Shown here in pieces: positions 3,421 to 50,260 of a stretch of DNA of 50,260 nt. Position 1 is the stretch's first letter. Every line of letters begins with the position of its first letter. Position numbers and translations under genes: made by a program. The notes below the pieces were generated by a model. That model ran no database searches, was not told the DNA's origin, and saw only the letters and a list, made by a program, of their open reading frames with translations. The stretch lies in sequence record PQ159479; one strand, given 5' to 3'. This DNA comes from Escherichia phage Henu4_2.

Positions 3421-3609
3421 ATGCATTCAAAGAATATTCAGGATCGGCATGGTGACAATATTCTTGTTTACAGTCGCGGTGAATCAGTCTGGATTGATTG
3501 TAAATATGACGACGACACCAAATTGCAGTTTCGCGCCATATTAGACAAGAAAAGCGCAAGAGAATTAGCGGATCATATAAAGCGGCTTGCTGATGAATTG
3601 CCTTATTAA
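3421..3609 (+). CDS. hypothetical protein
   Basis: 62-aa ORF, RBS CAGGAGGGA; stop immediately before motif copy 5. Confidence 0.45.
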   Translation: MHSKNIQDRHGDNILVYSRGESVWIDCKYDDDTKLQFRAILDKKSARELADHIKRLADELPY

Positions 3610-3653
3610 ATAGCACTTTTTGCTAAAACTTGCTAAGGCACATTTGATAAAGT
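3609..3653 (+). promoter_or_regulatory. conserved early element copy 5 (8-bp stem AAGGCACA/TGTGCCTT, TAAAGT)
   Basis: AATAGCACTTTTTGCTAAAA; TGaTAAAGT 22 nt after TTGCTA. Confidence 0.5.
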
Positions 3654-4178: not shown

Positions 4179-4746
4179 AATTATCATCCTTAATGCGCCT
4201 CCTGGTGCTGGTAAAGATACGATAGGCAAGATGATTTCTTTCTATTCGCCAGGCGAGCAATGCCGCATTATTAGCTTTAAAGAGCCGATGTTTGACATTG
4301 CATTAGCTATCCTGGGTAAAGAGAACTATCAGCGCTTCATGTTGGCTTATGATGACAGAGAGCAGAAAGAAAGGCCGCAAACATTCCTGATGGGTATGTC
4401 ACCGCGTGAGTTCATGATATGGATTAGCGAGGATGTAATCAAACCTAAATTCGGCAAGGATTATTTCGGCGTAAGGTTTAACCAGAAAGTAAAAGAGTGT
4501 GATGCTCCTGTTGTTTGCACTGATGGAGGTTTCCCAGATGAAATTATCGCGCTAATCAATGCTGGTAATGAAGTGAAGCTATGCCGCTTGCATCGCGACG
4601 GGTTCACGTTTGCAGGTGATAGCCGCAACTACATTCGAATCAATCCATACTACCAGAAAAACGGATATAGTGAACACGATTACTTATTAACCAATGAAAA
4701 GCCGATGATTACAGTTAGCGAAATCATTCGCGATCACCTTAAATAG
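4171..4746 (+). CDS. P-loop nucleotide kinase (dNMP-kinase-like)
   Basis: Walker A NAPPGAGKDT at N-terminus, resembling phage dNMP kinases; 191 aa. Confidence 0.6.
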   Translation: MAKIIILNAPPGAGKDTIGKMISFYSPGEQCRIISFKEPMFDIALAILGKENYQRFMLAYDDREQKERPQTFLMGMSPREFMIWISEDVIKPKFGKDYFGVRFNQKVKECDAPVVCTDGGFPDEIIALINAGNEVKLCRLHRDGFTFAGDSRNYIRINPYYQKNGYSEHDYLLTNEKPMITVSEIIRDHLK

Positions 4747-4786
4747 CACGAATTGCTAAAACTTGCGCAAGGCCATTTGATATAGT
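4743..4786 (+). promoter_or_regulatory. conserved early element copy 6 (stem AAGGCCA/TGGCCTT, TATAGT)
   Basis: ATAGCACGAATTGCTAAAA; TGaTATAGT 22 nt after TTGCTA. Confidence 0.5.
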
Positions 4787-5684: not shown

Positions 5685-6182
5685 ATGATCGCTAAAAATG
5701 ACCTTTGCAACCTGTTAACGGCTGGTAATGATTATCAGGTTTTGAATAGCACAAAAGACCGTTATTTTATTGAGTGTGACAATGGGGATCGCATGTGGCT
5801 TAAAAAAGGCTTTTTCGAAAGTGAGCATCTATGCAATGCAAAGCGAATCGCAGATGAAGCAAGCGCATTAGCAGAGCGTGAACGAATTCGCGATATAGTA
5901 GCGGAGCAGGTTAGAAATTCATGTTTGCCTGGTGGCGATATCTTCAAATCAATGCGCGGTGAAATGACGGTTGGAATTCAAGATCGCGTAATTGAAAAAT
6001 CAGTTGATCCTGTAATTGAGAATGCGCGATTCAATGCGTTGATTAACTCAGAGACTAACGAATACATTAAAGTGTTAGAGCAACTGCGTGAAGTGCTGCG
6101 AGTGCCGGAAGGTGAAAATATTGTCACTCATGCAAAAGTTGTAAGAGCGTTGGCTGATGCGCTGATTGGTCTGCAAAAATAG
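5685..6182 (+). CDS. hypothetical protein
   Basis: 165-aa ORF from ATG 5685 with RBS AAGGAGAG; stop TAG inside motif copy 7. Confidence 0.5.
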   Translation: MIAKNDLCNLLTAGNDYQVLNSTKDRYFIECDNGDRMWLKKGFFESEHLCNAKRIADEASALAERERIRDIVAEQVRNSCLPGGDIFKSMRGEMTVGIQDRVIEKSVDPVIENARFNALINSETNEYIKVLEQLREVLRVPEGENIVTHAKVVRALADALIGLQK

Positions 6183-6222
6183 CACTTTTTGTTAAAACTT
6201 CCGCGAGGGCATTTGTTAAAGT
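6179..6222 (+). promoter_or_regulatory. conserved early element copy 7 (TGtTAAAGT)
   Basis: ATAGCACTTTTTGTTAAAA; TAAAGT 22 nt after TTGTTA; weak GAGG/CCTC stem. Confidence 0.45.
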
Positions 6223-27500: not shown

Positions 27501-28320
27501 AATTGGTGATACCCAATCAGCGGTTAACCAGAAACTTGATTCATGGGTTAACGGTACAAGCGTTGGTGCGATGTACGGCGTTAAGTTGGGGATCAGGTAT
27601 AACGGGCAGGAATATAGCGCAGGTATGGCGCTTTCTCTTGTCGCTGATGGTGGCGGAGTTAAATCACAATTCCTGTTTGATGCTGGACGATTTGCGATCA
27701 TCAATAATGCTCAAAGCGGAGCCTTTACATTGCCGTTTGTTGTTGAAAATAATCAGGTGTTTATCAATAGCTTACTTGTTAAAAATGGTTCTATTGGCAA
27801 TGCACAGATTGCTAACTTCATCAACTCTAACAACTGGCAGAGCGGGGTTGCAGGATGGGCTATTAACAAAGATGGTTACGCAGAATTTAACCAGGTAACT
27901 GTAAGGGGTGGCGTTTACGCATCATATGGTTCATTCACCGGAAGCGTTTACGCGCAAGATGGTTGGTTTAGGGGTACTGTTTACGCTGAAAAAATTGAGG
28001 GTGACGTTGCAAAGGCTGTTGTTCTTCCGTTTAACGGATCGATTCACATTCCGGCGGTTAACTACAACAGACATCTTGTGATCCCTTATGTTGGTATTCA
28101 TGGGTACACATATTCAGGTGGTACATGGGGCGGCGGCACTGTTTGGGTTGATTCAACATATGGCGGTCGCCTTGCTAACGTTCGGGCAACTGCAATGCAT
28201 GGCGGATCAAGTGGCTATGTTCTGTTGCCAGCAGGTAACGCAACTACGCTTTCATATGGTGGAGATCTAAACCACGCAAACGCAGTACCGATCTTAACAG
28301 TTCTGCTATTCAAAGCATAA
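24544..28320 (+). CDS. tail tip / central fibre host-specificity protein (lambda gpJ-like)
   Basis: 1258 aa following M-L-K-I; conserved J-family architecture. Confidence 0.9.
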   Translation: MIKNMITGSKGGSSKPHTPVEMEDNLISINRIRILLAVSDGEVDPDFSLKDLYFDDVPVMNQDGSLNFQNVKAEFRPGTQTQDYIQGFTDTASEITVARDLTAATPYIISVTNKNLSAIRIKILMPRGVTQEDNGDLTGVRVEYAVDMAVDGAEYKEVLHDVIEGKTMSGYDRSRRIDLPVFNDRVLLRVRRLTDSTSARVTDLIKMQSYAEIVDAKFRYPLTGLVYVEFDSELFPNALPNISIKKKWKIINVPSNYDPISRTYSGSWDGTWKKAWSNNPAFVLYDLITNQRYGLDQRELGIALDKWSIYECAQYCDQMVPDGKGGTEPRYLCDVVIQSQVEAYQLVRDICSIFRGMSFWNGESLSIVIDKPRDASYIFTNDNVVNGDFSYTFASEKSMYTQCNVTFDDEQNMYQQDVEGVFETEAALRFGYNSTSITAIGCTRRSEANRRGRWILKTNVKSTTVNFATGLEGMIPTVGDVIVVSDNFWSSALTLNLSGRVMEVSGLQVFTPFKVDARAGDRILVNKPDGKPVGRTIARVSDDGKTLTLNTTFGFDVQPDTIFAIERTDIAQQRYVVTGITKGDGDEEFTYNITAVEYDPNKYDEIDYGVNIDDRPTSIVQPDILPAPQNVKIESYSRVVQGASVETMHVSWDKVEYASLYEMQWRKDNGNWNNTPRTANKETEVEGIYAGNYHVRVRSVAANGSASGWSAIVSAGLTGKVGEPERPINLTASDNEVFGIRVKWGMPEGSGDTAYIELHQAPNGADGHPIVDEATLLTLIPFPQYEYWHSILPAGHVVWYKARAVDKIGNVSDWTDFVRGMASDDTSIITDHIKVDIENSDGYKWLQENAIKANDKIHSTAESVIENALANDKDVRRMRVENGKRKAEFLQSLKLIADETEARVTQVTQMSAQFDEKLTAQNSELREVIANSTETISQRIDQLTATFESEIDGVKQDIKAQITDVNQAITNEAEARASADRALSTQIGDTQSAVNQKLDSWVNGTSVGAMYGVKLGIRYNGQEYSAGMALSLVADGGGVKSQFLFDAGRFAIINNAQSGAFTLPFVVENNQVFINSLLVKNGSIGNAQIANFINSNNWQSGVAGWAINKDGYAEFNQVTVRGGVYASYGSFTGSVYAQDGWFRGTVYAEKIEGDVAKAVVLPFNGSIHIPAVNYNRHLVIPYVGIHGYTYSGGTWGGGTVWVDSTYGGRLANVRATAMHGGSSGYVLLPAGNATTLSYGGDLNHANAVPILTVLLFKA

Positions 28321-28334
28321 AAGGAGGTAAATCA

Positions 28335-28378
28335 ATGCCCTGGCTTAACGGTCTGGGCATTTTGTTTTCTTTTGTTCC
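28335..28378 (+). terminator. putative terminator closing the late operon
   Basis: ATGCCC...GGGCAT stem followed by TTTTGTTTTCTTTT. Confidence 0.45.
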
Positions 28379-28429
28379 ATGATGTTCACAACTGAATCCG
28401 GCGTAAAATTGAAAACGTCTTGATAACAA

Positions 28430-28620
28430 AAAGAACAAATTAAATATCTATATAATACATACACTTAGAGTTTAATTATTATTATATATATCTATTTGTA
28501 TTCTTCTTGTTTCTATTGTTCTCTATGGTTTGTAGTGGTTGTGTGTTTTGTATTGGTTGATGGTTATATATCACATGGTATGTATTTATATATGGTATGC
28601 GGCGTAAATGTGTGAACAAT
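28430..28620. repeat. AT- and GT-rich low-complexity intergenic region (control region A)
   Basis: TATATAT runs and GGTTGT/GTTTTGT repeats; related to 49920-50080. Confidence 0.5.
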
Positions 28621-28724
28621 GGAACACAAAAACAACAATTAGCAAAATCATAAACTTACGATGTGATTTTGTTGTCAGTGCTAGTTGTAAACGTATGCAA
28701 AACAAAAAGAACACACAAAGGGTA

Positions 28725-28752
28725 TTGACTACATGCAACAAAGACCTATAAT
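28725..28752 (+). promoter_or_regulatory. near-consensus sigma70 promoter (TTGACT-16-TATAAT)
   Basis: TTGACT 28725-28730, TATAAT 28747-28752; RBS GAGGATGA; ATG 28781. Confidence 0.7.
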
Positions 28753-28780
28753 GCAGACATACCAACTAGAGGATGACCAA

Positions 28781-29836
28781 ATGAGCGATTTTAAAGTTTA
28801 CACCTTTGACCAGTTAACCAATGATGAATATCACGATCCTAAAGGTTGGGCGGCTGAATACGTTAGCGGTTCAAGCCTGGCGGAAATCTTTGCAACTTGT
28901 CCGGCTGCATGGAAATACAGACCACGCGAGGAAAGCAAAGCGCTTGTTTTCGGTACGCAGTCACACACCAACTTTCAAAGCAGTGAGTTGTTCGCAAAAG
29001 AGTACCGCCGAGCGCCAGCGCCGGAAGATTACGAAAACTTGATCACAAGCCAAACAGCATTAGCAAGCAAGTTAAAATCTTTTGGCCTGACTGGTACAAG
29101 CGGGAAAACTTATCCAGACCTGATAAAAATGATGGTTGATTGTGGTGAGGATCTTAATGTTCAGTGGCTGATTGAAATGATCGCAGAGAGCCAAGCGCGA
29201 GCGGATAACGTTGAATTGGTTCCGGCTAAAGATTACGACGCTTGCGTTACCATGCGCCGTGTGCTGGAAAGCATACCGGAACACAACGCTTGCATGAATA
29301 GCCCAACAGCACAACGAGAGCTATCAATTTTCGGTATTATCAAAGGCGTGAAAGTCAAAGTAAGGCTTGATCATGTTGATATTTGCAAAGATGTGCTTGC
29401 AACTGTGATTTCCGGTTATGATGGTGAAGGTAATCCGGTATATGAAACAACGCGATTTGAGGAAGCGATTGTGATCACGGATTATAAAACAACGTCAAGC
29501 GCTAACCCGTCAGAGTTTGCAAGGCTGGCATTCAATCACGGATACTACTTGAAAATGGCATTGCAGCACGATCTATTTAAATGCGCATATCCAGATGAAA
29601 AAAGGCCAATTGTAATGCGTTTGCTTGCTCAAGAGAAAAAAGAGCCTTATTTACCAATCGCATATCGCATGACGGATGAACATTTAAAGATCGGCGGCAT
29701 ACAATACATGAGCGTGATAAACCAGTTTGCAGAATGCCAGGCAAATGACGTTTGGCCTTCATATGCAAACGGAGAGCCGGAAATTGACCTTCAAACGCCT
29801 GATTGGGTTCGTCGTCAATACAAAGGTTTTTTATAA
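28781..29836 (+). CDS. PD-(D/E)XK recombination exonuclease
   Basis: motifs RLDHVD and VITDYKT; ATG 28781 chosen because the longer ORF would overlap the promoter. Confidence 0.7.
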   Translation: MSDFKVYTFDQLTNDEYHDPKGWAAEYVSGSSLAEIFATCPAAWKYRPREESKALVFGTQSHTNFQSSELFAKEYRRAPAPEDYENLITSQTALASKLKSFGLTGTSGKTYPDLIKMMVDCGEDLNVQWLIEMIAESQARADNVELVPAKDYDACVTMRRVLESIPEHNACMNSPTAQRELSIFGIIKGVKVKVRLDHVDICKDVLATVISGYDGEGNPVYETTRFEEAIVITDYKTTSSANPSEFARLAFNHGYYLKMALQHDLFKCAYPDEKRPIVMRLLAQEKKEPYLPIAYRMTDEHLKIGGIQYMSVINQFAECQANDVWPSYANGEPEIDLQTPDWVRRQYKGFL

Positions 29837-29879
29837 ATAGCACTTTTTGCTAAAAATGCCATTATATGCGTGGTATACT
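29837..29879 (+). promoter_or_regulatory. conserved early element copy 8 (stem GCGTG/CACGC, TATACT)
   Basis: ATAGCACTTTTTGCTAAAA; TGgTATACT; ATCAACCAAC leader. Confidence 0.5.
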
Positions 29880-35149: not shown

Positions 35150-35758
35150 TTAGCAATCAGTGCTATCGACGGAAATCACAACGCGTTTCTTCTGATTGGC
35201 TTCCTTTGCTTTGCGCCGTTCTTCTTTCTCCTTGTCGCGTTCAGCCTTGCGCCGCGCTTTCTCCTTCTCGCGTTCTTCTGGAGTCATAGACCGTAACGGA
35301 TCGTAAGGCCGGACAAATCCCCTTGCTTCCGCTTCCTCTTTGGTTACAAATCGCATCAGCTTTCTGTTGCTGCAACGATTCTCTAATGGTTTTCCGTTAT
35401 TATCAAACTTGATATCTGGACGGCAATATGAAGCGCGAAAACCGTTAAAACCTTTGCGGCGGTAATCTTTCTGGATCAGTTCAGCGCCTTTAGTTGAAAT
35501 CATGCCGCGCTCTTTCCATCCCCATACTGTTTTAAGGTTAACGCCAATTTCACGCGCCAGGGCAGCGCAACCGCCGTAAGCGTTGACAACTTCATCAAGA
35601 CGCGCTTTTAATCCGGCTCTTACTTCTTCCTTTAATACAAGATAACCGCTAACAGGTGCGCGACGTTTGCGATCTTTACCACGTCTTACGCCGTTGTTAC
35701 CATTGATTGTGCGTTTGTCGATTTCGCCAGTTGAGGCGGCAATTTTGATTTCGCTCAT
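35150..35758 (-). CDS. HTH DNA-binding protein with polybasic C-terminal tail (putative regulator)
   Basis: HTH-like CAALAREIGVNLKTVWGWKERG; C-terminal KR/E-rich; start at ATG 35758 with RBS AGGTGA. Confidence 0.55.
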   Translation of the reverse strand: MSEIKIAASTGEIDKRTINGNNGVRRGKDRKRRAPVSGYLVLKEEVRAGLKARLDEVVNAYGGCAALAREIGVNLKTVWGWKERGMISTKGAELIQKDYRRKGFNGFRASYCRPDIKFDNNGKPLENRCSNRKLMRFVTKEEAEARGFVRPYDPLRSMTPEEREKEKARRKAERDKEKEERRKAKEANQKKRVVISVDSTDC

Positions 35759-35768
35759 ATTTTCACCT

Positions 35769-35811
35769 ATAGCACTTTTTGCTAAAAAACTTGATTGAGT
35801 TTGTGTATGAT
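35769..35811 (+). promoter_or_regulatory. conserved early element copy 9 upstream of helicase operon
   Basis: ATAGCACTTTTTGCTAAAA then TATGAT. Confidence 0.5.
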
Positions 35812-35835
35812 ATGCCGCAAATGGCATTTAGTCAA
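35807..35835 (-). promoter_or_regulatory. sigma70 promoter for HTH gene (TTGACT-17-TATCAT), -10 overlapping the plus-strand -10
   Basis: minus-strand TTGACT (35835-35830), 17-nt spacer, TATCAT (35812-35807). Confidence 0.6.
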
Positions 35836-37822: not shown

Positions 37823-38230
37823 ATGGTTACTGACAAAGGCGATTATCTGGAGTATTACAACAAATCAGATCCAGACGATAGGAAGGAGGAAGCGCACCAG
37901 GTTGATTCTTATTCATGGCTAACATATGAGTTTACAATGTGGCTTGTTTGGCACACTAAAAACGAGGGGAAGAAAACCATAGGCACAGCCGTAAAGGATC
38001 AGCAAGCGGGTGTGAAAAAGGGAGTTAGCGACATTCTAATTCTGACTGGTTTTATTGGCTGCAAGTATTCATTTATAGCCATTGAGCTTAAACGCGCCAA
38101 CAAGAAAGGCACGAAAGTAAGCCAGGAGCAAAAGGAATTCTTACGACGCGTTAGGGAATGCGGAGGATTTGCCGCCGTATGCTATGGCGTAGAGCAAGTA
38201 AAATTGGCTATCGCAGACGCTACAAAATAG
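37823..38230 (+). CDS. VRR-NUC domain nuclease
   Basis: GVSDILIL...IAIELKRANKKGTKVSQEQKEF matches the VRR-NUC D..E.K and SxEQ pattern. Confidence 0.75.
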   Translation: MVTDKGDYLEYYNKSDPDDRKEEAHQVDSYSWLTYEFTMWLVWHTKNEGKKTIGTAVKDQQAGVKKGVSDILILTGFIGCKYSFIAIELKRANKKGTKVSQEQKEFLRRVRECGGFAAVCYGVEQVKLAIADATK

Positions 38231-38270
38231 CACTTTTTGTTAAAACAGGCGCAACGGAATGCGCCATAAT
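38226..38270 (+). promoter_or_regulatory. conserved early element copy 10 (stem GGCGC/GCGCC, CATAAT)
   Basis: ATAGCACTTTTTGTTAAAA; CATAAT 22 nt after TTGTTA; AACGAAACGGAG leader. Confidence 0.5.
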
Positions 38271-39321: not shown

Positions 39322-39588
39322 ATGGAAAAGATTGAAACTATTGTTGAAAATGGCGTTGAATATCGACGCGTTGAATTAACTGAACGTGGTTTATGGTTGC
39401 TTTATCGCGCTATGGTGTGCGATGCGATAGAAAAGGCGAATGAAACTGAAACAGTAGGATCTGATTTGTGGATGTTCACAGATGTGCTTGATATGAGTTT
39501 TGATGAAACAAAAGAGCTTGTATTGAGCAAGTGGGAAGAAAAGATAAATCAAGATCTAAAAGAATTTTTAGCAGATCCGAATAAATAG
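39322..39588 (+). CDS. hypothetical protein
   Basis: 88-aa ORF, stop inside motif copy 11. Confidence 0.45.
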   Translation: MEKIETIVENGVEYRRVELTERGLWLLYRAMVCDAIEKANETETVGSDLWMFTDVLDMSFDETKELVLSKWEEKINQDLKEFLADPNK

Positions 39589-39628
39589 CACTTTTTGTTA
39601 AAAATGCCCCGCTTATGTGGGGCATAAT
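39584..39628 (+). promoter_or_regulatory. conserved early element copy 11 (stem ATGCCCC/GGGGCAT, CATAAT)
   Basis: ATAGCACTTTTTGTTAAAA; CATAAT; TTCAACGAAACGAAACGAGGA leader. Confidence 0.5.
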
Positions 39629-44603: not shown

Positions 44604-44659
44604 TTGTTGCCGCTAATTATAACGGCAACATTCTACAGCCTTTTAGCAATTCGTGCTAT
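44604..44659 (-). promoter_or_regulatory. conserved early element (minus), stem GTTGCCG/CGGCAAC with TATAAT in loop
   Basis: minus-strand ATAGCACGAATTGCTAAAA then hairpin with TATAAT; RBS AAGGAG. Confidence 0.5.
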
Positions 44660-44904
44660 TTGATCGGCTCAACCCTGGCTAATAACTTTCCGTCTATAAT
44701 GCTATGACATTCAAGAGTTTTAGGATCGAATGCAAGCGAACGATGGAACGTATGACCAATCAGCAAATATGAATGCTTATCCCTGATGCGATAGACCGTT
44801 TCACCTTCCTTTAATGAGGATATCGCACTGAAAACAACCTTGTAACGGTATTTTTGCATGGCCTCAGAACGGTGAGGAATGTAATCTTTTTCCGGTAAAC
44901 TCAT
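44656..44904 (-). CDS. hypothetical protein
   Basis: 82-aa ORF; stop TAG inside the motif. Confidence 0.45.
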   Translation of the reverse strand: MSLPEKDYIPHRSEAMQKYRYKVVFSAISSLKEGETVYRIRDKHSYLLIGHTFHRSLAFDPKTLECHSIIDGKLLARVEPIK

Positions 44905-45263
44905 GAGTATTTGGCCTCAAACAGATAAGCACCGCCAGCGGCTGAAAATCCAACTTCTTCCCGATACAGCGTGAAACGGTCGCCGTTTTCGTCGAAAACG
45001 TATCCAGCAACAGCACCTAACACGCGGCCTTGTTCGATCTGGTAACGCTTATCGGCTTTGAAAGTTTTCTTAATCTGCATGGAGTGGTTTACCCATGTGC
45101 ATTTAATGGTTTTGGTCTTAACATTTCGGAATGTTAATCCGGTTAAGTTGGCGTGAATCCATTTCCCATCTAACTTAACGAAAGTATCATCATTTTCGTC
45201 TACCCGCGCTTTGTATAGGCGGTTATCAGATCCGATAAGTTTGATTGATTTGAATTTAGCCAT
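44901..45263 (-). CDS. hypothetical protein
   Basis: 120-aa ORF, RBS AAAGGAGATAA. Confidence 0.45.
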   Translation of the reverse strand: MAKFKSIKLIGSDNRLYKARVDENDDTFVKLDGKWIHANLTGLTFRNVKTKTIKCTWVNHSMQIKKTFKADKRYQIEQGRVLGAVAGYVFDENGDRFTLYREEVGFSAAGGAYLFEAKYS

Positions 45264-45294
45264 TTGATTTATCTCCTTTTGTTTTCGTTGAAAG

Positions 45295-45339
45295 CATTAT
45301 GCCGGATACGTGATCCGGCGTTTTAACAAAAAGTGCTAT
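45295..45339 (-). promoter_or_regulatory. conserved early element (minus), stem GCCGGAT/ATCCGGC, CATAAT
   Basis: minus-strand AATAGCACTTTTTGTTAAAAC + hairpin + CATAAT + TTCAACGAAAAC leader. Confidence 0.5.
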
Positions 45340-46031
45340 TTCTGATTTGCCAGGCATACAGCAAGCGCAAAGCCGCGCGGAGTGAGTGAGCGGATCAGCT
45401 TTGTTCGCTTAGACTTACCGCCTAGCTTTTGCCAGCCTGGATTGTTGTTCCCTGTTGGCAATACTGCGTTTGTATCCGGCATTACAAAACCGTTACCCGT
45501 CCAAAGGCAAGTTTTTTTGGTGTACGCATCGCGAGCGGGAATGATTTCAGGAAAGTGAGGATGTTTATCATCTTCCGGCAACAGACCGCCAAATGCGCAA
45601 GGATGAAAGATAAAATCAGGTTGCCTCCACATCGACGACAGGACGCTAACAGGATTCTCGATCATGTATGGAACGTTAAACCGATCCGCAATATTGGCAG
45701 CAATCTTTGCCGTTTCAACCGCCTTTTTCTGGAAGTCTGGATCACGTTCACGCTTTGCTGCAAAGTGACGCGATCCGCTAACAGCTAAATCAGTGCATGG
45801 AGGGAATGCAATAATAAAATCTGGAGTGCCAAAGACGCGCATCATTGCGTTATGCTGGAATGATAATCCGATCCACTCATTCAAATAAACGATGTTGGGA
45901 TGAGTCACGCGCACTGATTGGTAATCACCATGATCAGCACCGTCGAAATTAAAGCACAGCACTTTGTGACCACGTTCAGCCCACGGCAACGCAGCATAAC
46001 CAGAACCATCAAATAGTGAGAAAATAAGCAT
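45336..46031 (-). CDS. putative DNA cytosine-5 methyltransferase (short form)
   Basis: motif I-like FSLFDGSGYAA, motif IV-like AFPPCTD, motif VI-like YMIENPV; ATG 46031 with RBS AAAGGA. Confidence 0.55.
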   Translation of the reverse strand: MLIFSLFDGSGYAALPWAERGHKVLCFNFDGADHGDYQSVRVTHPNIVYLNEWIGLSFQHNAMMRVFGTPDFIIAFPPCTDLAVSGSRHFAAKRERDPDFQKKAVETAKIAANIADRFNVPYMIENPVSVLSSMWRQPDFIFHPCAFGGLLPEDDKHPHFPEIIPARDAYTKKTCLWTGNGFVMPDTNAVLPTGNNNPGWQKLGGKSKRTKLIRSLTPRGFALAVCLANQK

Positions 46032-46140
46032 GTTTAAATCCTTTCTGTATGACCTTGTAAGGCGTTTTGTTTGTAGGTGTCGCAACTGTATTGGCTACGG
46101 CCTGAAATCGCGACACGACGCTAAACAGGCCGCTATTTTT

Positions 46141-46218
46141 TTACTTACAGAATGGGCATGTTGTTTTATCCCCGATTCCGCCGTGTTTTGGGCAGCAAAT
46201 TTTTTCGATAGGTGTCAT
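46141..46218 (-). CDS. zinc-ribbon mini-protein (25 aa)
   Basis: MTPIEKICCPKHGGIGDKTTCPFCK with strong RBS AAGGAG 8 nt upstream. Confidence 0.35.
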   Translation of the reverse strand: MTPIEKICCPKHGGIGDKTTCPFCK

Positions 46219-46230
46219 TTTAAATACTCC

Positions 46231-46473
46231 TTAGAATGGGAAACAACGCTTGCAAGATGGATCGAAGTTACAACCGCAATCATTGATTATTGCGTTAGGA
46301 TCAGCAAGCATCACGCTACTTTCTTGATCCATATCCATAGCGCCTAATGCGTCATCAAGCGTTATTTCAAGATAGGCAACTTTAAGCGCCCATTCTTTGT
46401 TAAGTCCAGCCGCCTCCGCTTCATGTAGGCGAGCAAAGAAAGCATCTTGAACCATATCAACCCCACTTCTCAA
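46231..46473 (-). CDS. hypothetical protein with C-terminal Cys cluster
   Basis: 80 aa ending CGCNFDPSCKRC. Confidence 0.45.
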   Translation of the reverse strand: MRSGVDMVQDAFFARLHEAEAAGLNKEWALKVAYLEITLDDALGAMDMDQESSVMLADPNAIINDCGCNFDPSCKRCFPF

Positions 46474-46678
46474 TAAACATGCTCATTTCGTCAATCATCG
46501 CGTAAGCATCACTTTCAGTTATTCGGCGGATTCTACCGCCTGGATGTTCGCCAACAGCGTAACCAGTTTTTACGCGGGTAATCGTTAACTGATGGAATCC
46601 AGAAGCGCGATCCATTTTCAAAACTACTTTCCCGTGAGCTTTGACAATGTTCATGATGGATTCAGTTTTCAGTTTCAT
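46457..46678 (-). CDS. hypothetical protein
   Basis: 73-aa ORF after motif copy; RBS TGGAGAA. Confidence 0.45.
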   Translation of the reverse strand: MKLKTESIMNIVKAHGKVVLKMDRASGFHQLTITRVKTGYAVGEHPGGRIRRITESDAYAMIDEMSMFIEKWG

Positions 46679-46709
46679 TTTTGATTCTCCATTTTGTTTG
46701 TGTGAAAGT

Positions 46710-46757
46710 ATGATACCAATCAGAGCGATATCGTTTTTAGCAATTCGTGCTGTTTAC
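46710..46757 (-). promoter_or_regulatory. conserved early element (minus), TGgTATCAT
   Basis: minus-strand ACAGCACGAATTGCTAAAAA then extended -10 TGGTATCAT. Confidence 0.5.
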
Positions 46758-46904
46758 GGCGATAAACGGATAGCCTGTTAAATCTGCATTTCTATAACGC
46801 GCAGACCTAACCCAACAGCCGCCTTTGCTCATAATTAAAGCGTTTTTATGACGCAGGTTTACGCGGTAAATTCTTCCGGTTTTTATGTTTTTGAAATATG
46901 TCAT
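46737..46904 (-). CDS. small hypothetical protein (55 aa)
   Basis: ATGA-coupled to upstream gene; stop inside motif; below the ORF-track cut-off. Confidence 0.35.
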   Translation of the reverse strand: MTYFKNIKTGRIYRVNLRHKNALIMSKGGCWVRSARYRNADLTGYPFIAVNSTNC

Positions 46905-47098
46905 AGATACGTGATCCTATCTTCTGTTACCCACTCGCAACGCTGGCGCTCAATTGTTTTGCCATATTTTTTATTAATATGATCGCTGTTGTAATCTTCA
47001 AGAGCTTGCAACGCATTTGCTAAATTATTAGCAGTTGCAATAAGTGTTTTATCATTCGCGTCAATTCTGCTAACCAAATAACACGCATAACGGATCAT
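46901..47098 (-). CDS. hypothetical protein
   Basis: 65-aa ORF. Confidence 0.4.
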   Translation of the reverse strand: MIRYACYLVSRIDANDKTLIATANNLANALQALEDYNSDHINKKYGKTIERQRCEWVTEDRITYL

Positions 47099-47328
47099 AA
47101 TTTAACCTCATGATATTCTATAAATTCTTGCACATATGCGCATTCTCGCGGAGACTCCTGGCCTTTTAACACTTCACAGCCACCATTAAACAGATAGCAG
47201 TGCTGGCAAAGGTTGCCGCCTACGTTTTCCTCAGCGATCTGAATTCCGGTACACAAACCGCCACCAAACCTATGAGGAAAATCGTAAGCCTGGCAGCGGC
47301 ACGTTGCTTGATGCCGCTTACGTTTCAT
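47095..47328 (-). CDS. Cys-rich (putative zinc-binding) protein
   Basis: 77 aa with CRC...C..C...C..C...C pattern. Confidence 0.45.
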   Translation of the reverse strand: MKRKRHQATCRCQAYDFPHRFGGGLCTGIQIAEENVGGNLCQHCYLFNGGCEVLKGQESPRECAYVQEFIEYHEVKL

Positions 47329-47609
47329 TAAATGTTCTCACTGATAAACTGGATAACCTGGCGAAGATGTTTTTCATCTTTAATGAATGCTGGCAATTCT
47401 TCCATAACTTCTTTTTTCAGATAAATGTTTGCATTCCATGTGAATGATCCATCACCATTTACGCGGTAAGAACAAAGCCATTCGCAATCATTATCCACTT
47501 CCCAAATGCACAGCGTTTCAAATTCTTCAAACTTGTTGTAACCCGTTTCAATGCTTAACTCAATGCCACGTTTGCCAGCGAAATTAGTAGTTGTTTTTGA
47601 TACCATCAT
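47328..47609 (-). CDS. hypothetical protein
   Basis: 93-aa ORF after motif copy; RBS CCGGAGAA. Confidence 0.45.
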   Translation of the reverse strand: MMVSKTTTNFAGKRGIELSIETGYNKFEEFETLCIWEVDNDCEWLCSYRVNGDGSFTWNANIYLKKEVMEELPAFIKDEKHLRQVIQFISENI

Positions 47610-47640
47610 TTTTAAATTCTCCGGTTCGTTTCGATGAATG

Positions 47641-47686
47641 CATTATGCCAAAACAAACCGGATCGCTTTTAACAAAAAGTGCTATT
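47641..47686 (-). promoter_or_regulatory. conserved early element (minus), CATAAT
   Basis: minus-strand AAATAGCACTTTTTGTTAAAAGC ... GGCATAATG ... TTCATCGAAACGAACC leader. Confidence 0.5.
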
Positions 47687-47867
47687 TAGTGAGTTGATCA
47701 AGCCAATATCTCATTTTTTGCCAGCGTTTAAACCATTGTCTATCTTTTGACAGTTTTTGATCTTTACAATGAAGCATTGCATATAGCAAATACTCTTTTT
47801 CGTTTTCTATTCTCTCAATGAGTCGGCGGCACTTGCCTTTATTAGTAAAGCGGCGCAACAGTTTCAT
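47682..47867 (-). CDS. hypothetical protein
   Basis: 61-aa ORF, stop TAG in motif. Confidence 0.4.
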   Translation of the reverse strand: MKLLRRFTNKGKCRRLIERIENEKEYLLYAMLHCKDQKLSKDRQWFKRWQKMRYWLDQLTK

Positions 47868-48061
47868 TAATCACTCTCCATGACAATTACAGGCTCCAGG
47901 CGCTCAAGCACCACTTTGAAATCGGCGTAAAAAGTAGGGCGGCGTTTTGTTAATTCCTCATATGTATCAGTTGCCAGGCAAGCGCGATCACCTTCATAGC
48001 ACACAACGCGTTTACCATTTGCGCGACTGATTGCAACTACGCGATATGTATTATTGATCAT
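47867..48061 (-). CDS. hypothetical protein
   Basis: 64-aa ORF, RBS GAGGTGA. Confidence 0.4.
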   Translation of the reverse strand: MINNTYRVVAISRANGKRVVCYEGDRACLATDTYEELTKRRPTFYADFKVVLERLEPVIVMESD

Positions 48062-48294
48062 TTTATCACCTCAATTGAATAAATACTTTCAACGCCTGGC
48101 GCGTATAACCGCTTTCCATCTTCAGTTATGCAAAGACAAAGGGCAAGGCCGCGATTGTCTGAAATATGCAAGTCATTTTGTCTATCCATCAAAATTTCAT
48201 ATTCGCGATCTTCATCAAAGCGCCAAACGCTTAACATGCACTTTCCAGATGATTTAACTTTTACTTTCTTTCCGGTGAAATTTAAACGACTCAT
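48058..48294 (-). CDS. hypothetical protein
   Basis: 78-aa ORF, RBS GAGGTGG. Confidence 0.45.
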   Translation of the reverse strand: MSRLNFTGKKVKVKSSGKCMLSVWRFDEDREYEILMDRQNDLHISDNRGLALCLCITEDGKRLYAPGVESIYSIEVIK

Positions 48295-48515
48295 TGCGCC
48301 ACCTCAACAGTTTCAAATACGGTATTGAATGCCAGAAGTTTAAATTTATTGCCTGGTTCAACCACTGCGATATTCCAGGTAATGCCGCCGTGATATGCAA
48401 CCATATCATCAATATCGACGGTGATTTGTGCGCCCTTCTTGAATAAACCTTTCTCATGAGTAGCGTCACGTTCAGTAACTACAGTTTCGAATTGCGTTTG
48501 TTGTTCAAAGTTCAT
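48291..48515 (-). CDS. hypothetical protein
   Basis: 74-aa ORF after motif copy, RBS AAGGAGAA. Confidence 0.45.
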   Translation of the reverse strand: MNFEQQTQFETVVTERDATHEKGLFKKGAQITVDIDDMVAYHGGITWNIAVVEPGNKFKLLAFNTVFETVEVAQ

Positions 48516-48545
48516 CGTTGATTCTCCTTATTGGTTGATGTGTGT

Positions 48546-48590
48546 ATTATGCCGGATTGCTCAGGCGATGTTTTAACAAAAAGTGCTATT
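48546..48590 (-). promoter_or_regulatory. conserved early element (minus), CATAAT
   Basis: minus-strand AATAATAGCACTTTTTGTTAAAAC ... GGCATAATAC ... ATCAACCAATAAGGAG. Confidence 0.5.
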
Positions 48591-48873
48591 ATTCCCCAAC
48601 GATCCCAAAGATAGAAATTATTGAGTTTGTACGGCTGCGGCGATATTTGCGCATAACAACCGTTAAGTTTTCGCCTTGCTGATGACCTAACGTGATCGGC
48701 ATTTCAGATCCATCACCGAATTCATCACCAACCTTTTTTGGCTTTTCCCGCCACGCGCAAATGAAACCAAATTTATCACGCGTGATATATCGGTATATGT
48801 TAGGAAGGGGAATATTAACCCCTTCAAAGTCTACCGTTTGCGTGTAACTGCGAAAATTAAGCGTGGAATTCAT
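48589..48873 (-). CDS. hypothetical protein
   Basis: 94-aa ORF, RBS GGGGAGGTGA. Confidence 0.45.
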   Translation of the reverse strand: MNSTLNFRSYTQTVDFEGVNIPLPNIYRYITRDKFGFICAWREKPKKVGDEFGDGSEMPITLGHQQGENLTVVMRKYRRSRTNSIISIFGIVGE

Positions 48874-49015
48874 AAATCACCTCCCCAAATTCTCCGATTA
48901 CTTGCGCCTTGTAATATCCGCCACGGTTAGCCAACAAATACGCCTGACTAAGTGTTTCAAACACGCGGGTTACTGGCTGGCTGTTTTCGTGTTCCCAGGT
49001 AATCAAAGTAGTCAT
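48857..49015 (-). CDS. small hypothetical protein (52 aa)
   Basis: ATG at 49015 after motif copy and GAGGA RBS; below the ORF-track cut-off. Confidence 0.35.
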   Translation of the reverse strand: MTTLITWEHENSQPVTRVFETLSQAYLLANRGGYYKAQVIGEFGEVIYEFHA

Positions 49016-49040
49016 TGCTAAATCCTCATTTCGTTTCGAT

Positions 49041-49093
49041 GGGATAACTATATCAAGTTACCCCGATCCGGTTTTAACAAAAAATGCTATTTA
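49041..49093 (-). promoter_or_regulatory. conserved early element (minus), stem GGGGTAAC/GTTATCCC with TATAGT in loop
   Basis: minus-strand AAATAGCATTTTTTGTTAAAAC + hairpin + ATCGAAACGAAATGAGGA. Confidence 0.5.
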
Positions 49094-49525
49094 CAGCCAT
49101 TCGCCGGAAACAATGAAATCAGTGAAATCGTCATGATCCAAAATGCTGTGATAGCCAGTGCAATAATCATTTTTAACCATGTGACCACGCAAACGCACAT
49201 AATCAGCCTTTCGATCCGTAATCCAACGAATAAAGCGAGCGTTACGTTGTGGTATCGTTCCGGCGTAAGCCTCTTTGAATCCAATGTGTGCGATGAATGC
49301 CACAAAGCGGATTTGCAAGCCTGGATTGTCTTTCTTTGCCTCGTTAACAAGATCTCGGAAGTTTTCACGCGTTGGCTTGACCGGAACCAATTCGCCTAAC
49401 TCGATCATTCGGTTGAAGTCTGAAATGCTGGAATATGATTGCATAAACAGCCCATCGCTACCAAACATCACAACGCCGTTTTCGATGAAGTAAGTTTGTC
49501 CGTTGTATTTGTTTGTGTATTTCAT
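49091..49525 (-). CDS. hypothetical protein (first gene of right-arm early cluster)
   Basis: 144 aa from ATG 49525 with RBS GAGGAA (ORF is open from 49561). Confidence 0.5.
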   Translation of the reverse strand: MKYTNKYNGQTYFIENGVVMFGSDGLFMQSYSSISDFNRMIELGELVPVKPTRENFRDLVNEAKKDNPGLQIRFVAFIAHIGFKEAYAGTIPQRNARFIRWITDRKADYVRLRGHMVKNDYCTGYHSILDHDDFTDFIVSGEWL

Positions 49526-49556
49526 CGTGAATTCCTCAGTTCGTTTCGATGAAGTA

Positions 49557-49602
49557 ATCATAGCAATTCGTGACTGATTGGTTTTAACAAAAAGTGCTAT
49601 TC
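49557..49602 (-). promoter_or_regulatory. conserved early element (minus) with adjacent half-copy, TATGAT
   Basis: minus-strand GAATAGCACTTTTTGTTAAAACC followed by CACGAATTGCTATGAT and TTCATCGAAACGAAC leader. Confidence 0.5.
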
Positions 49603-49608
49603 ATGCGA

Positions 49609-49638
49609 TAGACCGATTGGTCTAGACCGTTTGGTCTA
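49609..49638. promoter_or_regulatory. two overlapping 16-bp palindromes (operator-like)
   Basis: TAGACCGATTGGTCTA and TAGACCGTTTGGTCTA sharing a central TA. Confidence 0.5.
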
Positions 49639-49670
49639 ATGAACACATCGTTTCTTGTATCGAACGGATT

Positions 49671-49706
49671 CACGATCACGTTATGCGATCACAATATGAT
49701 CACGTT
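49671..49706. repeat. cluster of three GATCAC (Dam-site) repeats at 11-13 bp spacing
   Basis: GATC at 49674, 49687, 49698, each in a CGATCAC context. Confidence 0.5.
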
Positions 49707-49720
49707 GATGATTGATGTGT

Positions 49721-49770
49721 GAGTTGATGTGATGTGATTTGATTAGATTTGATTAGATTTGAGTAGCGAG
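49721..49770. repeat. five tandem 10-bp iteron-like repeats
   Basis: GAGTTGATGT / GATGTGATTT / GATTAGATTT / GATTAGATTT / GAGTAGCGAG. Confidence 0.5.
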
Positions 49771-49919
49771 AGAGTGGAAATAATCACACCTTGCCGATCT
49801 CGTGAAAACTTTTCCGCAAAACATCACACCCTGGCTTGCGCGTTGTCTAAAACGTTCCACGATGTTCACGGGTTTACCTTCCGTAAAAAAGCGAAACAGA
49901 AAACAACAATGAATCACCC

Positions 49920-50080
49920 TATAACATACTAAAAAGTAAGATAATTTTATTTATATATCTATAAAAGTTTCTAGTTGTTTAGCTTGTTCTCTATATATAG
50001 GGATACCCCACGTATATTTTCTAACTTTATATGGTTATGTGTATGCTCCAGGGTATATGTATATATATGGGTATGTTCCG
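49920..50080. repeat. AT-rich low-complexity region (control region B, related to 28430-28620)
   Basis: shares TATATATCTAT, GTTCTCTAT and TATATATGGTATG blocks with region A. Confidence 0.5.
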
Positions 50081-50199
50081 AAATCGGCGTAGTTTTTGAA
50101 AACGCGCCGCAAAACATTGAAATCAAAGGCGATAAACACAAAAAGGCGTCTAAACAGAACAATATTCTGATTGTAGACATAAGAACAACAGAAAAAACT

Positions 50200-50228
50200 T
50201 TGACTATGCGCCAGCACATCAGCATAAT
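50200..50228 (+). promoter_or_regulatory. near-consensus sigma70 promoter (TTGACT-17-CATAAT) for gene 1
   Basis: TTGACT 50200-50205, CATAAT 50223-50228; ATCAAAACCAATCAGGAGAAAACCCT leader runs to the window end; ATG at position 1 on circularisation. Confidence 0.65.
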
Positions 50229-50260
50229 GCACACATCAAAACCAATCAGGAGAAAACCCT

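Follow-up and report, generated by a model that had tools for sequence, protein, structure and literature searches.

The genome of Escherichia phage Henu4_2 (sequence record PQ159479), a Tlsvirus of the T1-like Drexlerviridae, contains two regions, here called A and B, which are very probably diverged copies of a single cis module that is conserved and functional, both terminating in a genuine early promoter. The DNA analysed (the window) is 50,260 bp long and is the complete genome, circularly presented. Region A (28338–28781) lies between the tail-fibre gene tspJ, whose open reading frame (ORF) ends at 28320, and recE, whose ATG is at 28781. Region B (49829–50260) lies upstream of gene 1, whose ATG, the map being circular, falls at window position 1, and is bordered on its left by pac-like repeats and a block of minus-strand genes. 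According to the annotation of phage TLS, A and B are by far the two largest noncoding stretches. A literature search for origins, early promoters and transcriptomes of the T1 family gave nothing beyond the 2024 reannotation of TLS (PMC11447400), and yielded no transcriptome or 5′-end data for T1-like phages; the promoters are already known from TLS as predictions, and the paired modules appear to be undescribed.

The relationship between the two regions was first proposed, in the original prediction made from the sequence, on the basis of a series of shared blocks, and all of these were recovered: GATGTTCAC at 28381 in A and 49861 in B, CGTAAAA at 28402 and 49882, TATATATCTAT at 28485 and 49952, GTTCTCTAT at 28518 and 49986, and CGGCGTA at 28600 and 50085. 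The block TATATATGGTATG is present at 28587, but its B copy at 50062 reads TATATATGGGTATG, with one additional G. The boundaries originally drawn were too narrow, as the real related unit begins some 40 nt further left, at CCCTGGCTT (28338 and 49829), which forms the left limit of A/B similarity. Pairwise Smith–Waterman alignment of A with B gave a score of 50, compared with 22.2 ± 2.9 for dinucleotide shuffles (z 9.7) and 24.5 ± 3.4 for shuffles of 40-nt blocks that preserve local composition (z 7.4), confirming a likeness above that expected of base composition. The next best 460-nt segment in the whole genome scored 30, A and B are mutual best matches, and the best local alignment spans the stretch 49893–49994 of B. 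A profile built solely from region A of 11 other lineages and run with nhmmer matched both A (E 9e-51) and B (49854–50080, E 9e-12) in the window; the sole further significant match was to the reverse strand inside A (E 9e-5), reflecting an internal dyad symmetry of A.

The likeness reaches approximately 330 bp upstream of the promoters. Identity between A and B is about 52–54% in the left and central parts and 61% in the promoter and leader, and is lowest in the right arm (28610–28724 in A), at 36%. The description of the pair as duplicated promoters is therefore apt in that both regions do end in real-looking sigma-70 promoters, but the term fits only the last 30–60 bp, the likeness spanning most of the upstream module.

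The A/B pair recurs in three subfamilies, represented by TLS, T1 and Rtp, at the same syntenic sites and with the order of the blocks retained. Within-genome alignment of A against B was significant in 16 of 20 genomes (z 7–20); the score in T1 was 66 against 28 ± 5, and in Rtp 141 against 23 ± 3 (z 37). A query of positions 28300–28800 matched 31 phage records at 95–99% identity and was covered to at least 80% in 48 records, the matches including Citrobacter phage BSwS KMM3, Salmonella phage YSP2 and phage TLS, which shares 94.8% identity with the window in region A. Divergence in region A among 10 Tlsvirus genomes is 0.04–0.07 per site, not above that of the flanking genes, and within Tlsvirus the region is under purifying selection, as constrained as the neighbouring coding DNA. 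These comparisons bear directly on the suggestion that the regions are simply two duplicated strong promoters preceded by an inert AT-rich spacer of similar composition. AT-rich intergenic DNA can indeed resemble itself by composition, and the promoter and leader do show the highest A/B identity, but the score exceeds that of the composition-preserving shuffles, an independently derived profile detects both modules, the ordered blocks have been kept in three subfamilies and diversity in the A spacer is as low as in the genes beside it, so that we consider an inert spacer very unlikely.

Both regions end, as originally described, in TTGACT-16/17-(T/C)ATAAT, the sites being located at 28725–28752 and 50200–50228 on the plus strand. 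The recE promoter has its −35 hexamer TTGACT at 28725–28730, a 16-nt spacer and the −10 hexamer TATAAT at 28747–28752, followed by GCA, and matches 11 of the 12 consensus positions; the gene 1 promoter has TTGACT at 50200–50205, a 17-nt spacer and CATAAT at 50223–50228, again followed by GCA, and matches 10 of 12. The Shine–Dalgarno sequences are also as described, AGAGGA (28768–28773) preceding the recE ATG and CAGGAG (50247–50252), in the promoter and leader interval 50200–50260, preceding that of gene 1, and the promoters do precede the genes originally named for them, the recombination operon beginning with recE and gene 1. The description of the leaders as ATCAA-rich is only loosely true, the recE leader being A/C-rich.

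The TLS reannotation (PMC11447400) predicts three intergenic sigma-70 promoters in total, P01, P51 and P57. The two promoters of the window correspond positionally to P51 (before recE) and P01 (before gene 1), with equivalent spacing and a −35 hexamer that starts with TTGAC in all of them; P51 has TTGACT, like both promoters of the window, whereas P01 has TTGACG. The TLS paper gives the promoter hexamers only, and nothing on the upstream regions being related, AT-rich, repeat-bearing or conserved. A consensus match alone is weak evidence for a promoter, because a simple scan finds 20 sites in the genome that match the sigma-70 consensus in at least 10 of 12 positions, and the case consequently rests on conservation and position. 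The recE promoter, as TTGAC-N17-19-nAnAAT, has been retained by 41 of 45 related loci (T1 included), in which it lies at −56 to −62 relative to the ATG; comparable promoters lie 300–415 bp to the right of the B core in many lineages, with the strict pattern in nine of 17 B loci. Both promoter families share further positions, as TTGACTA and, after the −10, as TAnAATGCA. Several lineages additionally have a promoter directed leftward at the opposite side of the module. From these sequences we infer immediate-early timing for both promoters.

The third consensus promoter, TTGACT-17-TATCAT on the minus strand at 35835–35807, corresponds to P57 and lacks an AT-rich module, which indicates that the module is not simply a requirement of a strong promoter. 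It drives a Cro-like protein and primase, and lies in an 88-bp gap that it shares with a rightward copy of a 21-nt repeat preceding a helicase gene.

The longest recE ORF begins at an ATG at 28733, inside the promoter spacer, and this ATG is also the start given in the TLS RefSeq record. Provided that the promoter is real, the plausible start is the ATG at 28781, preceded by AGAGGA and adopted in the Stevie record; the longer recE start of some records would fall inside the predicted promoter.

Several lines of evidence indicate that the regions are noncoding DNA. No Rfam family matched at the gathering threshold anywhere in the window, the RNA fold energies of the two regions are ordinary (z 0.12 and −1.29), and the consensus fold of the alignment is −1.05 kcal/mol, its only ‘pairs’ being the DNA inverted repeats, with no conserved RNA structure; together, these results speak against an RNA gene. 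In close relatives every small ORF of the region, those annotated in existing records included, is interrupted by a stop or a frameshift, and third-position bias is absent, compared with the 15/8/50 variable columns by codon position in recE, which speaks against a protein-coding region. Nothing similar to the modules was found in E. coli genomes and plasmids, and a host- or plasmid-derived element was rejected on this ground. What might still be said for a small RNA, starting from an internal TATAAT-like box, or for a small protein is that this box, at the left edge of the core (28451 in the window), is conserved, that some database records annotate hypothetical proteins here, and that a 15-codon ORF at 28335–28382 has a strong Shine–Dalgarno sequence; set against the results above, and with no −35 partner for the TATAAT-like box, we regard this as very improbable.

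The 15-codon ORF itself, MPWLNGLGILFSFVP, overlaps the terminator hairpin described below and follows a strong Shine–Dalgarno sequence, AAGGAGGT, situated directly after the tspJ stop (28321–28382 for the two together). The Shine–Dalgarno sequence is conserved; the ORF is stopped early in one relative and has variable ends in others, and is probably not a gene.

Module A begins in a terminator. A hairpin, GCCCTGGCTTAACGGTCTGGGC, with a T-tract follows tspJ at 28337–28376 (this and the features that follow are on the plus strand unless stated otherwise); its equivalent in TLS is T50, predicted after tspJ (PMC11447400), and the Stevie record also annotates a terminator here. The T-tract doubles as the first TTTTGTT repeats of the module, and the left repeat cluster (28360–28390), with TTTTGTTTTC, TTTTGTTCCA and TGATGTTCACA, consists of three same-strand TGTT units spaced approximately 10 bp apart. 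The cluster aligns to GTTGTCTAAAACGTTCCACGATGTTCAC in B, and its position is kept in other lineages, the hexamers differing in some. It is followed by the left GC box CCGGCGTAAAAT (28398–28409), for which the counterparts are CCCACCGCAAAAT in lineage L027 and TCCGCGGAAAAT in Rtp, and which a repeat search found repeated directly, 201 bp away, in the right GC box. An A-rich block, ACAAAAAGAACAAA, then leads into the TATAAT-like box at 28451–28456 (28426–28462 overall), a position occupied by a CTATAATA-type box in the family alignment; no promoter was called there.

The centre of the module is a (TA)n-rich core at 28437–28496, to which no strand is assigned and which is a candidate DNA-unwinding element, being the least stable 60-bp duplex of the whole genome. 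To its right, a second same-strand repeat cluster (TTGTATTC, TTCTTGTTTC, TATTGTTCTC and TATGG, 28496–28528) runs into a G/T-rich tract, the two together covering 28496–28565; the cluster aligns to GTTGTTTAGCTTGTTCTCTAT in B, and a TTGTT...TGTTyC block is kept in nine lineages, the G/T-rich spacer being kept poorly. A second (TA)n patch, containing the TATATATGGTATG block, and the right GC box GCGGCGTAAAT occupy 28565–28609, with CGGCG(T/C)AAAT kept across lineages. On the minus strand at 28610–28627 lies an inverted repeat pair, GTGTGAACAATGGAACAC, the mirror of TGTTCCATGATGTTCACA in the left cluster, in which GTGAACAAnGGAACA is conserved. We considered a CRP site at this position and rejected it, as relatives keep two direct GAACA/AAACA units and not a palindrome. 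An IHF-like box, AATCATAAACTTA (28646–28658), has one mismatch to WATCAANNNNTTR and belongs to a block conserved in nine lineages, matching the consensus perfectly in L014, L016 and L017; it lies about 70–80 bp upstream of the −35. The last elements are opposed promoter-proximal repeats (28666–28716), ATTTTGTTGTC on the plus strand and AACAAAAAGAACACAC on the minus strand, the latter ending 9 bp before the −35.

Module B has the same plan. Its left end (49829–49890, plus strand) comprises CCCTGGCTT, the repeat cluster GTTGTCTAAAACGTTCCACGATGTTCAC at 49842–49869 and a GC-box remnant, TCCGTAAAAAA; an A-rich block, a TATAAC box (49920–49925), the (TA)n core and the repeat pair GTTGTTTAGCTTGTTCTCTAT follow at 49893–49994 (plus strand), the core containing the second least stable 60-mer of the genome, starting at 49921. 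A second (TA)n patch, TATATATATGGGTATG, then TGTTCC and a GC box, ATCGGCGTAG, lie at 50028–50092 on the plus strand. The right arm (50119–50198, no strand assigned), the part least like A, contains an AAATCA box, the inverted repeats AGAACAA (50157) and AGAACAAC (50183), and an A-tract, AGAAAAAAC, abutting the −35.

The two cores stand out in duplex stability. In the window, the nearest-neighbour energy per step is −0.94 kcal/mol for the A core and −1.00 kcal/mol for the B core, compared with a genome mean of −1.35 (standard deviation 0.08), and in each of the four whole genomes compared (window, T1, TLS and Rtp) no 60-bp duplexes are less stable than those of the A and B cores; the term unwinding element is used here for computed low duplex stability only, actual unwinding being a separate property. 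TATATAT occurs 11 times in A and B together against twice elsewhere in the window, and 18 times against twice in T1. The repeats are similarly concentrated: GAACA/TGTTC is found 12 times in the window modules (1.8 expected), T1 bears TGTAAC(A) at the equivalent positions, with TGTAACA present six times in A and B and not at all in the other 47 kb, and lineages L013 and L015 carry TGTTTA six or seven times in A and five to seven times in B, a word absent from the modules of most other lineages. The orientation of the repeats flips across the core of the module.

Judged from these sequence features, the upstream 330 bp or so may be origin-like unwinding and protein-binding platforms coupled to the early promoters, a reading that we favour tentatively and would place just short of probable. 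[quoted passage not shown]

SPP1 is, like the T1 family, a pac-type siphovirus, and its two similar origins, oriL and oriR, are kilobases apart, each with direct repeats beside an AT-rich unwinding element and one of them in a long intergenic region bracketed by transcription signals; A and B are likewise two similarly organized regions of repeats and an AT-rich element in one genome. In SPP1, an exonuclease, an annealing protein and SSB take over after the origin has fired, or once the fork meets the second origin. The parallel has its limits. No sequence relationship is claimed, SPP1 oriL lies inside a gene, and the SPP1 binder gp38, helicase loader and DnaB-type helicase have no identified counterpart in the window, where the replication genes, a zinc-ribbon primase and SF2-type helicases, are of other types. 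Moreover, binding and origin function have been demonstrated for SPP1, whereas both are predictions for the modules of the window.

Host RNA polymerase probably uses both promoters as soon as the DNA enters the cell. If the modules do act as origins, a phage protein, for which the best candidate is the Cro-type helix-turn-helix protein made with primase, would occupy the repeats on either side of the (TA)n core. IHF-type bending, together with negative supercoils behind the outward transcription, could aid opening of the core, at which the phage primase and helicases would then load. The copy upstream of recE–erf–ssb might, like SPP1 oriR, convert theta replication to recombination-driven concatemer synthesis. 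Taken as a whole, the scheme in which A and B are the two origins of the Drexlerviridae, the Cro-like protein is the origin binder, the recE copy is a theta-to-concatemer switch and transcriptional supercoiling opens the core is speculative, and we think it rather unlikely to hold in every part.

The candidate binder is a 202-residue Cro-type helix-turn-helix protein, homologous to TLS gp57 and T1 gp23, encoded on the minus strand at 35153–35758, divergently from the helicase gene, and predicted to be co-transcribed with primase from the promoter at 35835–35807. It gives weak Pfam matches to P22_Cro and YdaS and belongs to PHROG 2856 (transcriptional regulator). Its AlphaFold model has a pLDDT of 82, and the best PDB matches are Cro proteins, weak ones (best E 0.027, none with E ≤ 0.001). 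A replication-initiator domain in this protein was discounted, as the fold search gave only matches to Cro and C-protein helix-turn-helix proteins, none of which reached that threshold. Variation within the conserved core of the protein is greatest in the recognition helix. The lineage-variable repeats of the modules, a pattern that is not universal, suggest a phage-encoded binder that co-evolves with its sites; the 202-residue protein would then be the best candidate to bind the A/B repeats. The 21-nt repeat ATAGCACnnnTTGnTAAAA, which is constant in every lineage where it was seen, argues for the variable repeats as the target of this protein, an assignment that stays an inference because lineage and helix type are confounded.

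Satellite phage P4 offers a second comparison. Its ori and crr are two separated cis regions bearing the same short repeats and served by one replication protein, the alpha protein, a single polypeptide that combines primase, helicase and binding functions; separate proteins would serve in T1-like phages, so that a Cro-like binder would split the binding, primase and helicase functions that alpha unites. The T1-type primase shares the zinc-ribbon domain of primase-helicases. The P4 repeat, TGTTCACC, resembles the TGTTCAC found at 28383, at 49863 and, in reverse, at 28612, but this heptamer is not enriched genome-wide (10 copies in total) and T1 has TGTAACA instead; the resemblance is probably coincidental.

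A number of observations weigh against the origin-like reading. The TGTT-type units, though enriched and positionally conserved, are only 5–7 bp long and degenerate; the repeats of iteron-type origins are usually 17–22 bp long and regularly spaced. The 10-bp phasing of the T[TG]GT[TA] and G/T-rich repeats was not significant. Only two or three lineages show clear lineage-specific covariation of the repeats between A and B, and it breaks down in L019 and L022, which have TGTTTC in A against TGTAAC in B; a clean rule of one motif per lineage was abandoned for this discordance and because an unbiased hexamer search gave mostly generic TTTTGT and TTGTTT words. Neither GATC nor a consensus DnaA box nor an exact IHF site is present in the window modules, and an oriC-type origin dependent on DnaA, Dam or exact IHF sites was rejected on this ground. 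GC skew was rejected as an indicator of an origin, as it tracks the direction of transcription only. Binding by the Cro-like protein is deduced solely from the variability of its helix, lineage and helix type being fully confounded. Among close relatives, B is much less conserved than A, the whole B region being common to only five records, compared with 48 for A. Finally, both modules are invariably linked to a promoter 300–400 bp downstream, and plain transcriptional control explains this linkage at least as naturally.

The main rival to the origin-like reading is accordingly that A and B are purely transcriptional control regions of the two early promoters, without a role in replication. 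The promoters would be boosted early by the AT-rich upstream DNA, by an IHF bend and by operator-like repeats, and/or shut off later by the Cro-like protein or H-NS. The distance from module to promoter is near-constant in both copies and in all subfamilies, repeats abut the −35 in the window (28701–28716 and 50179–50198), and in region B of T1 an inverted pair of them overlaps the −10 and +1 region. The position of the IHF-like box would suit such a role, the A-tract beside the −35 in B resembles a proximal UP subsite, and the candidate binder is of the Cro type and annotated as a transcriptional regulator. In phage lambda, IHF and upstream DNA boost the pL promoter, and early promoters of this kind share with those of the window a near-consensus host-type promoter heading an early operon, AT-rich upstream DNA and an IHF-like box tens of base pairs upstream; they differ in that the modules described here are conserved over 350 bp and have opposed repeat arrays, (TA)n cores bounded by GC boxes and a paralogous partner. 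Transcriptional control explains some features less well. A stretch of about 330 bp constrained like coding DNA, with symmetric repeats and, over the two copies, two extreme stability minima, is more than promoter-upstream regions usually contain; the (TA)n tracts lie 230–290 bp upstream, distant from polymerase, and yet are strongly kept; and the third consensus promoter does without any such module. We regard control of transcription alone as a real possibility, though on balance not a likely one.

In either case, the modules are of some practical consequence. T1 belongs to the seven classical T phages; phages of its type are both notorious contaminants of laboratories and fermentations and candidates for phage therapy, while their origin and early regulatory circuitry are still unmapped, as stated in the 2024 TLS paper (PMC11447400). 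The pair provides two precise experimental targets of 400 bp each. Were they origins, they would explain how replication starts in the family and could yield phage-dependent plasmids or infection-blocking decoys; were they promoter control regions only, they would define the immediate-early switch.

The left edge of module B is also a point at which homology to several relatives is lost. Matches to TLS, PHB07 and SorkZaugg extend only up to about 49846–49850 of the query, the module B of the window is an allele other than that of TLS, and module B and gene 1 behave, on sequence comparison, as an exchangeable mosaic segment. Gene 1 (1–474), the first gene behind the B promoter, encodes a DUF7174/PHROG 4841 product with no assigned function; in other lineages, diverged gene 1 homologues with a conserved SYMRTTxxRVPEVK motif lie downstream of module B.

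This break in Tlsvirus homology might be taken as a sign that the modules are mobile or recombinational elements, whether insertions resembling miniature inverted-repeat transposable elements, a recombination hotspot beside the recombination genes or an accessory site for packaging. The core is flanked by inverted repeats (TGTTCCATGATGTTCACA and its mirror) and by the directly repeated GC boxes, the module includes a G/T-rich tract, and B lies about 70 bp from AGATTT repeats, which the TLS paper relates to the pac site (PMC11447400). However, the copies number exactly two, occupy fixed syntenic sites across three subfamilies and have a mutual identity of only some 50–60%, which marks them as ancient residents and not recent insertions; miniature inverted-repeat elements would be expected as near-identical copies at variable sites with a patchy distribution, and A and B are none of these. 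With E. coli genomes and plasmids containing nothing similar, and A being 21 kb from pac and free of TGATGTGAT/AGATTT repeats, we consider an explanation of this kind highly improbable.

The interval between module B and a leftward repeat-type promoter at 49581–49601 (49602–49828) contains three features: two overlapping palindromes, TAGACCGwTTGGTCTA, at 49609–49638, replaced by different palindromes at the same place in other lineages; four GATCAC units at 49673–49706; and TGATGTGAT/AGATTT repeats at 49712–49765, in the equivalent of which the T1 record begins. Its sequence suggests that this is probably the packaging-initiation region.

The 21-nt repeat ATAGCACnnnTTGnTAAAA has dyad symmetry (TAGCA-N5-TGCTA) and is the same as the published TLS repeats without assigned function. 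Copies lie at 1188–1215, 1598–1625, 3606–3633, 4739–4766, 6175–6202, 29833–29860, 35765–35792, 38223–38250 and 39581–39608, and minus-strand copies at 44616–49601. Some 20 nt beyond the repeat, in every case on the downstream side with respect to transcription, come a small hairpin and a −10 box of the CATAAT or TAAAGT type; the sequence of the repeat was identical in all lineages in which it was seen (T1, TLS and Hanrivervirus-like contigs). From this arrangement, the sites look like activator-dependent middle promoters.

Some of the matching database records bear unexpected names. The MG0656xx records (‘Campylobacter phage’) and OR786094.1 (‘Streptococcus phage MBBL140’) contain T1-like sequence, MBBL140 being 96% identical to region A, and by their sequence look like mislabelled or contaminant enterobacterial T1-like phages.

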